From: a virus
UHGV virus genome: UHGV-1735583
DNA: 13,324 nt
Reading direction: 5' to 3' (one strand)
This document shows positions 1 to 6,000 of the stretch, piece by piece. Within the stretch, counting starts at the first letter, position 1. The number at the start of each line of letters is the position of its first letter. Position numbers: made by a program.

Positions 1-3000
1 TGGGACCTGCCGGTCCTTGCTCGCCCCTGTCACCTTTCGGTCCAGGTATGCTTTCTCCCGACGGGCGGGTTGTCGCAACCTCTTCTGCCTTCTGTTTCGC
101 TGCCCTGGCCTCATCCATAGCCGCCTTCACAGCTTTCGGTGTGGCTGCCTTCGTTTCATCATCACTGTCCGTTGCGCTGCTTAACTGCACAATTCCCTTC
201 TGTGCCGTCGTCGCATCTGCCACATTTGCTGCGCTGCCCGCCGGGCCTGGCTCCCCACGAGGTCCCTGAGGTCCAGCTTCGCCTCGTTCACCTTTCGGAC
301 CTGCCGGACCCGGTTCACCTCTCTCTCCGGCGGGGCCCTGTAATCCTTGCGGACCACGTTCCCCGGGTTCCCCTTTCGGCCCCGCAGGTCCGGTCTCACC
401 GCGCTCTCCCTTTGCTCCTGCCGGCCCCGGCTCACCTCTCGGACCAGTATCCCCCTTTGGTCCCTGAGGCCCCCCCGGGTCTCCTTTTTCGCCTCTGGCC
501 CCGGTTTCACCACGCGGCCCCATTGCTCCCTGTGGCCCGGTCGCACCACGTGGGCCAGCATCACCTTTCGGCCCTGTATCGCCTTTAGGTCCTCGTGCAT
601 TCTCTGCCATACGTCTGGCTTCTTCAGCACTAACTGTAGCAGCCTCAGCACGTTTAAGAACGTCTCCGGCGGCCTCCTGAGCCACTCTGGCGGTTTCAGC
701 ATGTCGTCTGGCCTCTTTAGCGTCAGCTGCCGCTGCCTTTTCAGACTCACCTGCCCGGGTCGCCGCCTCTGCAGCCTCACTGGCTTTTTGTGCAGACTCC
801 GTCGCTTTGCTGGTCGCAGCCTTCGCGCTTTCTGATGCAGTCTTCGCACTGGCAGCAGCGCTTTCCTTCGACTGTGAAGCCTGATTATTTTTCACCGCCG
901 TGTCTTCGTTCAGACGACGAATCGTGGCAAGGTCATCCGCCACATTGTTCTGTATCTGCCGGAAATCTGTCAGCAGTTCTCCGGGTATGCTCACCTCAAC
1001 AAGACTGCGGCGTAACAGCATATTGAGCGTCACCGTACTTTCAGTCCCCTCAATACGCACACGTCCGTAGACAGCAGTCTTCCCTTTCACCGTCACAGAA
1101 ACCGCATACTCCCCCGGCTCCAGCGTCATTCCGTAATACCCGCCGTCACGAGTCACTGCTGACGCACTGGTGCCGCTGAGCGCATCCGGTGAAACTGTCA
1201 GCGCCGTCAGGGTAATATTTGCGCCTGATATCGCCTCACCATCAGGAGATTTCAGCGTCCCCGAAACAACAACACTCACATTCCACCTCCGTTAAACACC
1301 TTCTTGCGGGCAGACAATGCACTGTCTGCACCCTGTTTAATCCCGAGCTGCTCAACAAAACTCTGATAATGTTGTGCTGCCAGTCCTGACTCTGCACCAC
1401 CGGCTGCATCCTTGCTGAATGCACGAAACAACATCCAGTCAACCAGCGGGTTAACATAAGCCTCTTCCAGCGGTACAGGCGTGTCATCATCCTGCGTCAG
1501 AACATACACCGCCTCCGGAATGCGGCTGACCACAGCATCAACACTCACAGCCTCCTCCGGTGCCGGAAACAGCCAGAACACGCGCGGGGCAAGGTCACTG
1601 CTGATAAAGCATTCCGGTTTCCCCCTCAGCATGTGCCAGTCGGGATACTGTGCATCAAGCACCTCACGGGATTGCGGTTTTACAGCACTGCCATCGCTGA
1701 GGCATATCACGTCAAGAAGCTGTATTGCGCCATCAGGCAAAGTCTGACGTGCACCAGGAACACAATTCAGCGTCTCCAGACTTGCGCCTGCATCCGGCCT
1801 TGCCAGAATCACCGCCCGCACAGCATCATTGTAATAATCACACAGCTCAGCCAGAGGCCAGCGCACCATCATCGGGTCAACCAGTTGCGTGTTCACTCGT
1901 CCGATGATTTCAGTAATCGTCGTCATCAGTAAAACCTTTGTCTGCGGACAGGATTGCGGTATGAGGAGTACGGACTTGTCGCCAGTGTGTCGCGATATGC
2001 CCGACGGATACCCTCAGAAAACAGCACAGAGAAATACTGTGCGCGCGACGGGTCTGACCATGAAACCCCGGTCTGCATGAACAACCGTTCAAGCGCCCCT
2101 GCAGCCACTTCTTCAGACCATGCCCGCAGTTCATCCTGCACCTGACGGCTCCCTGCTTTCGGAGCAACGGCATAAAGCACACTCACCTCTCCGGGCGAAC
2201 AGGCAAAATGCATTACCCGCCCCGGGCGGATTTCCACATCATGACCGGCAAAAAGCTCACGCCCGTCAGCGAGGATACGAATAATATGTACGCACTCTTC
2301 ATTCTCCGCGTCATATGGCAGCACACAGTCCTCTCCGGCTGGCGGTGACAGCGTGGCTTCACGGCGGCACAACAGGGACTGACGGCAGAATGCCACTGCC
2401 GACATGGATAACGCATCCGTCATCATAATGTTCAGCGGACCACTGATATGGCGACGGACATACGGTAAAAAATCAGTCAGTTCCGCCATGCTGTTCAGTC
2501 TCCGCAACACGACGGCGAAATGCCTCACGCACACGGACACGAAATGCATCAGCCGTTTCTTTCGGGTCTTTGTGAATATTCAGCTCTTCTGCCTCACACA
2601 ACGTTGCCAGCCGTGCGGACGTGAGTTTGCTCAAATCCACATCCTGACCACCAACGCTAACCACAAAACTGTTCTCCGCTTCTGCAAGAGCAACCTGTTC
2701 TCTTTCCTGCGCCTGCTGTGCCTGCCGCAACTGCTCATCCTGTTGTTGCTTTTTGAGCACACCATCAAGCTCTTCATGACGAACCCAGACATCCGGAAAG
2801 GCCAGCAACTGCCAGGCAAGCGCGCTGTCAACATGCACCGGCTCAAGACGCGGGAACAGTGTACGACTCCCGGTAAGGGTATCCTTTTTCACGGGTTTGG
2901 GGCCGATATAGACAACGGCAATTTTCTCGCTCATATAATTCCCCGGATAAAAAAGCCCGCATGACGCGGGCCGGAAGGTTTATATCAGTATCCCACCACG

Positions 3001-6000
3001 GTATAACGCAGCAGAACATTCAGGGTACCGGTCGCAGCAGCTGTCTTAATGGTGACCGTAACCAGCTCCCCGTCACGCAGTGTGGTGTACGGCTCCACGG
3101 GCACATATCTGGCAAATTTTGCAGAAACAGCTTCGCTGTTATCGATGAGAACATGCTCACCGGACTTAATGCTGACGGTTGCAGTACCCAGACCGCCCGT
3201 TGAAACCAGCTGTAACGCATTAATACGAACACCGATCGGCAACGAAAAAAGATGAATAACACTGTCCGCTTCCGCAGCATTCACAGTAAACACACCTTCT
3301 GCCACCGACTCATTACCGTGCGTACCCGTATAGACCCGTTCACTCAGTGACGGGGCAAGGATGGTCTTTGCCATAATTAATGACTCCTGAAAAAGCCGGG
3401 CGATAACCCGGCATGGGGAAAGGAAAAATCACAGCTTCACTGCGGTATCAACGGCAATAACACCGTGATCCTGCATCTTGCCGCTCTTCTCGGGGAAACG
3501 GATTTTTTTCAGACCGTTGATCCAGCTGATTGCTATCTCAGTACGGTTATCCATATCCGTTTTCTTCTCAACCATGTTGAAGTGGCCGCCGCCCTTCTGG
3601 CCGTACGCATTCGCCAGCGCCTGAGCCCCCAGCAGCATGGCACGGTCGATGTTGGTTGCGGCCTGCTTCTCTTCTGTGGTTGCCGTCAGGTCGTTTTTCG
3701 ATACCAGAACCTTTGACCCCTGATAGAAACGGATCGGCATCCCCGCATACTTGCGGACCAGGATATTGCGCCACATCGCACATTCGCCTTTGAACAGCGG
3801 ATGGTTAAACCCTTTTGAGCGGTTTACGGCACGCGTCATCATCTGGTTCCAGTCCTTGCCGGACGTGGAGGTGTACCAGTCATTCCACTGACGCGGCGTG
3901 ACGTAGAGGACGTAATACGGATCTTCGCCATACAGCTCATCACCGGACAGGCGTACCGGTTGTAACGGATGAGCCATCTCGTCAATAAACAGTGAGAGAT
4001 TATCGACCAGCGCAAGAGTGAACAGGTCAGACTGATCAATACCTTCAAAACTCGTCGCATCCCCACCGAAAAAATGACGATCATGCGTCGGCGGCAGTAC
4101 GTCGTTGATCATGATTTTTTTGAATTCAGGGTGATCTGCCGTTGGCAGAATGGTGTCATCAGCAACAAAATCACCGCGGGCACCGGCAAGATGCACTATC
4201 GCACACTGGTCCTGCAGGTCGTTAAAGTACGTACCCAGCAGCGTTCTGGCAGAGGATGCCAGGTTGAACTTCGTACGCTGTTGGCTCATACGTCCGCCCG
4301 CATCCACCAGGTGACGGCCCTGATTAATTTTCAGGGAAAAATCAGCATGGCTGAGGTCTTCACCACGGCCTTCAACGCGCTCATCCCCCATCGTCGGACG
4401 TTTAGAGAGTTTGTGCATGATGCTGAATGTCACTTCATCACCGGCCTGTTTGTTGAGGTCCGTGATTCGCACAACCGGTGCACCGGCACTGGTCTGCTTC
4501 GTGCTTTTCTTGTCAGGCGAAACTGCTTTTGGTGCATCCTGCTGTTCAGTGAGTATATTCACCATTGAGCGGTTGCGGTTGGCAGCCGTGAAAAGCGCCA
4601 CCTGATACAGCTTATTCGCCTGGGCTGTTGTTACTGTGGTCATTACGTCAGTACTCCTTCAGTGGTTACCCGAGTTTTTCCAGAATCGCGTCAATTTCAG
4701 CGTCCGTCATGCCTCGCATGGCGGCTTCAATTTCGGTATGGGAAGCACCAAGTAACCGTTCAAAATTATCACCGGTTCCGACGGAAGCCGTGTTGCCAAG
4801 CTCTGACGGGGAAGCAGGCACTGCCATCTCCCGTTCAGCGGCTTTCACTTTTTCTTCCGCCGTTTTCCGGATATCCGTGTTGTCTGCCTTGTCATCAGAA
4901 GGCGGCTCACTGGCTTCACCGAAAGCGAGCTGCGTACGGCGGGCCACTTCGGCGAAACGTTCAGTGAGCGGTTTGTCTTTCCATGCGGGGTCATTCTGGA
5001 GCTTCCCGTCGATGGATACGGCAACCGAGAAGCGATCCGGATCGGAGTTCTGCCACGTTTTCAGCACCGGCACGGCATTCATCGCATCAAGAACCGGTGA
5101 TAAATCCTCACCACCATGACCTTCTGCCTGCTGTGCTGATTGCTGAACACGGGACTGGAGATAGTTATTTTTACGGATGAGCGAAGCCACCGCGTCACCA
5201 ATTTCCGGATACATCTCCCTGATACGGGCAATCTTCTCATCAGAGATTTTTTCGTTTTCCGGTAACGGTGCGGGTTTCATACCGGCCTGGTGGATCTGAG
5301 ACGTCAGCAGTTCAACCAGGCGTTTTTCTTCGGCTATCTGTCCCCGAAGAAGTGCGGCTTCCTGTTCGGCCCGCTGCTTACCGGAACGTTCAGCCTCAAG
5401 GACTTCATAGGGAATGACGTGTTTACCATCGCGGGTGAGCACACCCTTCGCCTCCGGCTCCTTCACGTCCTGCGTCTGCTCAGCACTGGCATCCGGCGTC
5501 GGTGCCGCAGTGTTATCGCCCGTCTGTGTCTGTGCTGCCTCATCCGCATGATTTTCTGTGGCGGCCTCTGTCACGCAGTCCTGTTCGTGACCGTCAATAT
5601 CCACATCCCCAAGCCCTTCCAGCATTTTTTCCAGTTGTTCCGGGGTTTCTTCACCCGTAAATTCAAAATCCATAAATAACTCCGCATGGTCTGTTTATCG
5701 GACAGATCCGAATGGTTGAGTAAATAAGGCTTATCGCTGCCCCCGCGAATAAGCGCACCGCTCCCGGAACGCTTATCTCCGGAAACAAAAAACCCCGTAC
5801 GATGACGGGGTTCCGTTTAAGTTCAGGATTTTCAGAGCGGCATTTCATGCATCCGCTGTTGTAGTGTATGCAGCATCTGTTGCTGAAGAACTTCCTGCTC
5901 CTGTTCCATATTCTGTATGCCGGTAATGATTTCTGCCGTATGTGCCTGGTTAAGCGCATCCACATAACGCTGTCCCTGTGCCGCGGCGACATCCCGTTGT

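Follow-up and report, generated by a model that had tools for sequence, protein, structure and literature searches.

Introduction

Directly downstream of the major capsid gene, on the minus strand of a 13,324-nucleotide stretch of the UHGV virus genome UHGV-1735583 (the window, which was analysed over its full length), lies an open reading frame (ORF) of 129 aa. The closest described counterpart of its product is gp67 of phage phi24B, which has been identified as the phi24B capsid cementing protein by cryo-electron microscopy and mass spectrometry (bioRxiv 10.64898/2026.04.10.717836). The phi24B capsid has a triangulation number of T=9, and its asymmetric unit contains nine capsid proteins and nine gp67 subunits (bioRxiv 10.64898/2026.04.10.717836), which by our arithmetic amounts to 540 capsid and 540 gp67 copies per virion. 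gp67 is trimeric and sits on the outside of the shell at the meeting points of three capsomers; each subunit consists of an N-terminal arm and a 4+4 immunoglobulin-like (Ig-like) β-sandwich of a Pam1-like fold, the N-terminal arms "hug" the neighbouring subunits to give a tulip-shaped trimer, and His19 acts as the anchor of the trimer on the shell (bioRxiv 10.64898/2026.04.10.717836). The supplement of the preprint places gp67 at phi24B positions 35933-36382 and reports 793 spectra from liquid chromatography-tandem mass spectrometry (LC-MS/MS) (bioRxiv 10.64898/2026.04.10.717836). We matched this interval to vb_24B_31 (HM208303 35996-36385), which we take it to contain.

In Sp5 (VT2-Sakai), the corresponding gene, ORF63 (ECs1224), likewise encodes 129 aa and lies between the capsid gene ORF62 and ORF64. 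It has been studied only genetically, and its function was left unassigned there. ORF63 was chosen for deletion with its own primer set, and nine ORFs were found to be essential, as judged by the lack of plaques (60, 61, 62, 65, 67, 70, 71, 79 and 80) (PMC5155283). ORF63 is not among these nine, so that laboratory growth does not require the cement protein.

More distant cement proteins have been described structurally in the cyanophage Pam1, in the Ralstonia phage GP4 and in the Helicobacter phages KHP30 and KHP40. Pam1 gp6 (PDB 7EEL chain H) forms a trimer with the same "hugging" N-terminal arm as in phi24B (bioRxiv 10.64898/2026.04.10.717836), although on a T=7 rather than a T=9 capsid. The GP4 capsid is T=9 like that of phi24B, with 540 capsid and 540 cement copies (PMC9698820). 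Its cement protein gp1 (PDB 8H89 chain J, 157 aa) is an Ig-like trimer at quasi-threefold sites, but it is anchored by Asp residues and lacks the "hugging" contact of the N-terminal arm (bioRxiv 10.64898/2026.04.10.717836). KHP30 and KHP40 (PDB 7DN2, 7DOU) carry trimeric cement proteins of 124-126 aa.

Results and Discussion

The 129-aa protein closely resembles phi24B gp67

The product of the 129-aa ORF is almost certainly the capsid cementing protein of a phage of the 933W/Sp5/phi24B type, because it is 95% identical to phi24B gp67 (123 of 129 residues shared with vb_24B_31). The phi24B protein also has 129 residues and His19, and its gene likewise comes after the capsid gene, which is itself 95% identical to that of the window (95% identity also between the two capsid proteins); the VT2-Sakai record is 95.3% identical to the window cement protein by tblastn. 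The first-pass annotation of this DNA had suggested a capsid decoration or cementing protein produced at levels like those of the coat, a suggestion that is borne out by the identity to gp67, with its nine copies per asymmetric unit. It had also described the protein as having no recognisable family. This holds for Pfam and NCBIfam, in which we found no family (a single sub-threshold "chromo_anti" line was read as noise), but not for PHROGs, where the protein matches PHROG 486 (phrog_486, "virion structural protein") from end to end (E 5.6e-59). The protein is one already described in phi24B in the 2026 preprint.

Structural comparisons extend this assignment to cement proteins of more distant phages. 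With the single sequence, phmmer gave nothing significant against a copy of PDB evidently without the phi24B entries (9XLR and related; best E 0.4), and Rfam at gathering thresholds gave no match in the whole window. A profile built from 45 family sequences, on the other hand, matched the Pam1 "Cement (decoration) proteins" chain 7eel_H over nearly its full length (E 1e-5), and the Pam1 capsid protein of the same entry (7eel) also matches the window capsid protein. Pam1 gp6 and the window protein have the G-x-x-G-N motif in common, at an overall identity of ~18-21%, but gp6 has Gly where the window protein has His19. The AlphaFold model of the 129-aa protein, which was built from the alignment (predicted local distance difference test score, pLDDT, 91.5; predicted template modelling score, pTM, 0.82), comprises a short N-terminal segment (strand at residues 4-6, helix at 8-11) followed by eight main strands. 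When this model was compared with PDB by Foldseek, as had been proposed along with the first reading of the sequence, the four best matches were all trimeric cement proteins, those of KHP40, Pam1, GP4 and KHP30 (E 4e-5 to 1.4e-4; query-normalised template modelling scores, TM-scores, 0.56-0.68). KHP40 ranks first (E 4e-5), Pam1 gp6 shows a like fold (E 1e-4, TM-score 0.63) and GP4 gp1 has the best TM-score (0.68). GP4 gp1 was not found by the sequence profile, and the KHP proteins, which come from another host and phage lineage, have no significant sequence similarity to the window protein (profile E 0.88 for 7dou_4).

Within the window protein, His19 lies in the segment G17-T-H19-G-N21 and is invariant in the 14 close homologues aligned. 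Across the 45-sequence alignment the invariant residues are G17, G20, N21 and G128, and the position of His19 is taken in distant members by Y, L, Q or other residues. A signature of the family can be written as G-x-x-G-N (G17, G20, N21) with a C-terminal Gly (G128).

By analogy with phi24B, the window protein is expected to form trimers at three-capsomer junctions in a copy number equal to that of the capsid protein. Such trimers would clamp the capsomer junctions, where the capsid of phi24B is without covalent cross-links, and this clamping would be dispensable under laboratory growth. A need for the two products in very large and equal numbers would explain why the cement gene comes directly after the capsid gene.

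The cement gene is a fixed member of related head modules

An exhaustive search of 1.84 billion representative sequences returned only 47 clusters at 50% identity, mostly of ~117-140 aa, the exceptions being some truncated fragments and one 244-aa outlier. In all of the related loci fetched (49/49), which take in Vibrio phage douglas 12A4 and IMG/VR contigs at 57-72% capsid-protein identity, the homologue lies directly after the capsid-gene homologue. The order is fixed as ~340-aa gene, capsid, cement, ~150-aa, ~200-aa and ~216-aa gene, as read ORF by ORF from six diverged loci and from the annotated records of close relatives. Scans for loci with the distant family members P0036 and P0060 returned none. 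tblastn with the cement protein found 189 phage records, and a match is present in 421 of 5,426 complete E. coli genomes, including O104:H4 outbreak strains. All eight of the E. coli rows displayed are labelled "hypothetical protein", and most of the phage records listed say the same or have no annotation. The practical value of the identification is accordingly one of annotation, as genes labelled "hypothetical protein" can now be given a name, together with a fold and a copy number; the understanding of Shiga-toxin phages is left unchanged beyond the 2026 phi24B structure.

These data also bear on the proposal, made in the first-pass annotation as the alternative to a cement protein, that the gene is a moron-style insertion, that is, an acquired cargo or lysogenic-conversion gene with its own transcription signals and unrelated to virion structure. 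A small gene flanked by terminator-like hairpins, mostly annotated as hypothetical and non-essential in Sp5, would fit that description. However, the GC content is flat (0.50-0.56) over the cement gene and its neighbours, no promoter-like site lies between the hairpins, and none of the related head modules examined lacks the gene or has it in another position, so that comparison with related modules, which the first reading had also put forward, speaks for a resident gene. Furthermore, sequence and fold both show homology of the protein to cement proteins of solved structure, and its phi24B orthologue has been resolved in the virion and detected by mass spectrometry (bioRxiv 10.64898/2026.04.10.717836). 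An own promoter with a terminator, atypical composition and sporadic presence, by which morons are recognised, are thus not features of the cement gene, and we regard the chance of a moron as close to negligible.

Two hairpins flank the cement gene

In hairpins 1 and 2 (Table 1), a GC-rich stem with a loop of 3-5 nt is followed directly 3′ by a T-run (consensus scan). Hairpin 2 is situated 12 nt past the cement-gene stop, just ahead of the ribosome-binding site of the next gene. A strict scan of the 13.3 kb, which accepted only perfect stems of ≥6 bp that include ≥5 GC pairs and have ≥5 T among the 6 nt that follow, found four distinct sites, hairpins 1 and 2 among them, all on the coding strand and all intergenic, whereas 60 dinucleotide-preserving shuffles gave a mean of 0.017. 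Folding in a context of 44-45 nt sets hairpin 1 apart by its energy (-16 kcal/mol, z = -2.84). The opposite (plus) strand has no site in the strict scan; on that strand neither hairpin is followed by a T-run, for which reason we rejected bidirectional terminators. An imperfect terminator-like hairpin is also seen downstream of the lysozyme gene (12334-12366).

The hairpins around the cement gene appear, from the pattern of their variation, to be under selection. The stem of hairpin 1 is invariant in all close relatives, with the loop variants TTAT and TTTT, and at the junction after the cement gene the stem is again kept while the loop varies; phi24B itself has both flanking hairpins and differs in a single loop base. 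Among distant relatives, unrelated hairpins occupy the capsid/cement junction in locus L002, in L005 (weak) and in L047 (no T-run). At the junction after the cement gene, unrelated hairpins with T7-T8 runs (seven to eight T) are found in L002, L005/L006 and L007, and a hairpin without a T-run in L048/L049.

What the hairpins might do

GC-rich stems, short loops and T-runs are canonical for intrinsic terminators, and both hairpins pass a scan that shuffled sequences almost never pass. Efficient termination at the two sites would make the cement gene an insulated transcription unit, as the first-pass annotation had it. This we consider very unlikely. A terminator that worked efficiently 15 nt ahead of the ribosome-binding site would silence the cement gene rather than boost it, because nothing between the hairpins restarts transcription (the consensus scan found no promoter-like site between hairpins 1 and 2), and it would abolish a protein needed at capsid number. 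The scan also shows no alternative promoter for the genes downstream, among them those for both adaptor rings and for the essential tail fibre. Like hairpins follow the portal gene and the Rz-like gene, giving a series of four, and in Shiga toxin (Stx) phages late transcription starts at PR′ and is antiterminated by Q (PMC7547250), which would be expected here as well.

We instead put at about even odds a role in which the hairpins act as partial terminators, as 3′-exonuclease barriers or as both, and so favour capsid and cement mRNA. The late operon would be read through by Q-modified polymerase, and the capsid and cement segments of the mRNA would be more abundant or longer-lived than those of downstream low-copy genes, such as the two adaptors, each of which forms a 12-subunit ring. 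In phage T7, the terminator T-phi, a hairpin right after capsid gene 10, raises capsid mRNA over that of downstream genes. T7 differs in having its own RNA polymerase and no antitermination, whereas the window has two elements around a second high-copy gene, with Q antitermination expected. More tentatively, the hairpin pair may be a dosage device inside the antiterminated operon, in which stable 3′ ends after RNA processing would keep capsid and cement proteins in step; we think this version possible but clearly less probable than the general one. Such a dosage arrangement would have been re-invented in different lineages with unrelated hairpin sequences. Term-seq data have been published for E. 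coli strain Sakai (PMC7547250). The recurrence of hairpin-plus-T elements of unrelated sequence around the two highest-copy head genes in several lineages provides a testable case for post-transcriptional dosage control.

Another possibility is that the hairpins mainly serve the prophage, stopping stray, non-antiterminated transcription in lysogens with little effect in the lytic cycle. In lambdoid phages, Q-modified polymerase passes terminators that stop unmodified polymerase; the modified enzyme would be expected to ignore the hairpins and the unmodified one would not. The hairpins are, moreover, confined to the sense strand and spaced along the operon. However, distant relatives again have hairpins around the two highest-copy genes, a placement that fits dosage control better than general silencing. 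A mainly prophage-related role is rather unlikely, although it is compatible with the dosage role.

Taken together, the identification as a cement protein and the proposed hairpin role form an explanation to which we assign a probability of roughly 0.88. Protein identity, fold class, synteny and the recurrence of hairpins come from this analysis; where the protein sits in the virion, its stoichiometry and its dispensability are taken from published work on near-identical phages. Several points weigh against it. The virion structure and proteomics are those of phi24B, as given in its preprint, and are carried over to the window from another phage. His19 is conserved only in the Stx-phage subgroup, so the mode of anchoring may differ across the family. 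Hairpin 2, in the same context as hairpin 1, is unexceptional in folding energy (-15 kcal/mol, z = -0.76), and the hairpins are not universal in the family, as L007 and L048/L049 have none at the capsid/cement junction and L047 has none after the cement gene. Q and PR′ lie outside the window, and the antitermination argument draws on homology to 933W-type phages. Finally, we infer termination or RNA stabilisation by either hairpin from its sequence.

The middle of the cement gene has been exchanged between lineages

In close homologues, residues 1-30 and 100-129 of the cement protein are nearly invariant, and residues 30-100 are variable. The window is almost identical to the IMG/VR locus L008 over the capsid and downstream genes, with the exception of one patch in the cement gene (Table 1). 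The gene is a mosaic, in which 3264-3205 matches L008, 3204-3088 matches phi24B and the flanks are L008-like. Compared with L008, codons 57-100 have a synonymous divergence (dS) of 1.04 and a nonsynonymous divergence (dN) of 0.155 (dN/dS ~0.15), and the rest of the cement gene has a single synonymous difference. From this distribution of differences, the patch is best read as a product of recombination with a diverged, imported allele. Positive selection on the variable middle was rejected on the same values, namely a dN/dS of ~0.15 with dS ~1 in the patch and one synonymous difference elsewhere. With respect to phi24B gp67, six substitutions are found, most of the difference lying in codons 37-56 of the window allele, and the capsid and downstream genes of the window belong to an L008/POCJ13-like sub-lineage, unlike those of phi24B. 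Because the cement gene is a mosaic, its protein is only 82% identical to the PhiR12_3 version, although the surrounding DNA is closest to PhiR12_3 (96.3%, the best megablast match for 2400-4700).

The exchangeable middle of the protein may be a host- or environment-facing surface that is swapped as a cassette. Could adhesion to surfaces or interaction with the host, rather than reinforcement, be the main selected role of the protein? Such a role is compatible with binding at the cementing positions; ligands of the host or of mucus would be bound by the exposed portion of the trimer, which would also orient the large head. The authors of the phi24B study suggest host or surface adhesion for gp67 by analogy with Pam1 (bioRxiv 10.64898/2026.04.10.717836). 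Reinforcement is not needed under laboratory conditions, as the Sp5 deletion mutant is viable; among close relatives the protein varies in its middle between two invariant ends, and a patch of ~120 nt has been exchanged between lineages. The lower-ranked Foldseek matches also include carbohydrate-binding modules and C1q-like domains. However, the carbohydrate-binding-module matches are weak (TM-scores 0.35-0.45) and generic for β-sandwiches, and a dN/dS of ~0.15 in the patch points to ordinary recombination under purifying selection with no adaptive signal. We therefore consider adhesion as the main selected role improbable, and a cementing role remains the preferred reading.

Organisation of the window and neighbouring genes

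The features discussed above are collected in Table 1. The 129-aa ORF, its strong ribosome-binding site and the two terminator-like hairpins after the capsid gene were all found where the first-pass annotation had placed them; the strand of the ORF, which is minus, was missing from it. The cement gene begins 54 nt downstream of the capsid gene. Two plus-strand ORFs that overlap it (2961-3203 and 3049-3255) are taken to be spurious; the family-wide homologues belong to the minus-strand ORF 2985-3374.

Table 1. Positions of the cement gene, the hairpins and other features of the window
Feature	Position	Strand	Remarks
Hairpin 2 and T-run	2948..2972	-	GGCCCGCGTCATGCGGGCT at 2972-2954, then TTTTTTAT (T-run TTTTTT)
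Capsid cementing protein gene	2985..3374	-	129 aa; ATG start at 3374-3372; orthologue of phi24B gp67 and Sp5 ORF63
Recombinant patch	about 3088..3204	-	codons ~57-97; phi24B-like in an L008-like background (mismatch profile)
Shine-Dalgarno sequence AGGAG	3384..3388	-	9 nt ahead of the ATG, read directly from the sequence
Hairpin 1 and T-run	3389..3412	-	GCCGGGTTATCGCCCGGC at 3412-3395, then TTTTTC; between the capsid stop and the cement ribosome-binding site
Major capsid protein gene	3429..4643	-	404 aa; HK97 fold; N4-gp56 / Phage_capsid_3 family
335-aa acidic protein gene	4666-5673	-	between the portal and capsid genes; Sp5 ORF61
Third hairpin and T-run	5791..5812	-	after the portal gene; sense strand
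Fourth hairpin and T-run	11475..11492	-	after the Rz-like 155-aa gene; sense strand

All genes of the window are read on the minus strand (ORF calls over the 13.3 kb). They follow the order lysozyme, Rz-like (155 aa), 183-aa gene, small terminase, large terminase, P22-type portal, 335-aa gene, capsid, 129-aa cement, 153-aa gene, ~190-aa gene and 216-aa SU10-type adaptor. A megablast search with 2400-4700 found 192 phage records, nearly all from Stx-converting or Sepvirinae phages. Because of this gene order and these matches, the window is, as far as can be read from its gene content, the late region of a short-tailed lambdoid phage or prophage of the 933W/Sp5/phi24B type.

The capsid protein matches Pfam PF13252 Phage_capsid_3 (E 1.8e-87) and PHROG 334 "major head protein" (E 1.2e-175), and among solved capsid proteins the GP4 one comes closest (PDB 8h89_A, E 2.3e-39). 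The capsid proteins of two further structures of recent deposition, PDB 26de/44ny and 9vye, are also related to the window protein (E 2.8e-13 and 4.2e-15, respectively). A 143-aa "Structural protein" chain in 26de matches the cement profile weakly (E 0.44) and may represent another capsid-plus-cement pairing. The codon adaptation index does not set the cement gene apart (0.323, with 0.396 for the capsid gene and 0.26-0.37 for other genes), and no conclusion is drawn from these figures.

The 335-aa protein, which has no Pfam or NCBIfam family, corresponds to Sp5 ORF61, which is essential for head formation and against which an antibody did not bind virions (PMC5155283). Because of its position, its need in head formation and the lack of antibody binding to virions, we think it more likely than the ORF65 product to be the true scaffolding protein.

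Downstream of the 153-aa gene, the genes at 1926-2549 (minus strand, ~190 aa) and 1276-1926 (minus strand, 216 aa) would correspond, by gene numbering only, to the phi24B dodecameric adaptor rings gp64 and gp62, and the 216-aa protein matches Pfam SU10_adaptor. In the Sp5 study, ORF65 (187 aa) is described as "scaffolding-like" and ORF66 (216 aa) as non-essential (PMC5155283), so that this study and the phi24B preprint appear to conflict on the two genes. The longest ORF of the ~190-aa gene encodes 207 aa from 2549 and shares 77 nt with the end of the 153-aa gene. Its true start is probably the Met codon at 2489, because the PHROG 437 match starts at residue 21 of the 207-aa ORF and Sp5 annotates 187 aa.

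A tail fibre gene seems to begin at about 1279 (minus strand) and to extend beyond the left end of the window; related phages annotate a tail fibre there, and that of Sp5 has been described as collagen-like (PMC5155283). Arg/Pro-rich ORFs on both strands at 139-849 may be off-frame readings of Gly-X-Y repeats.

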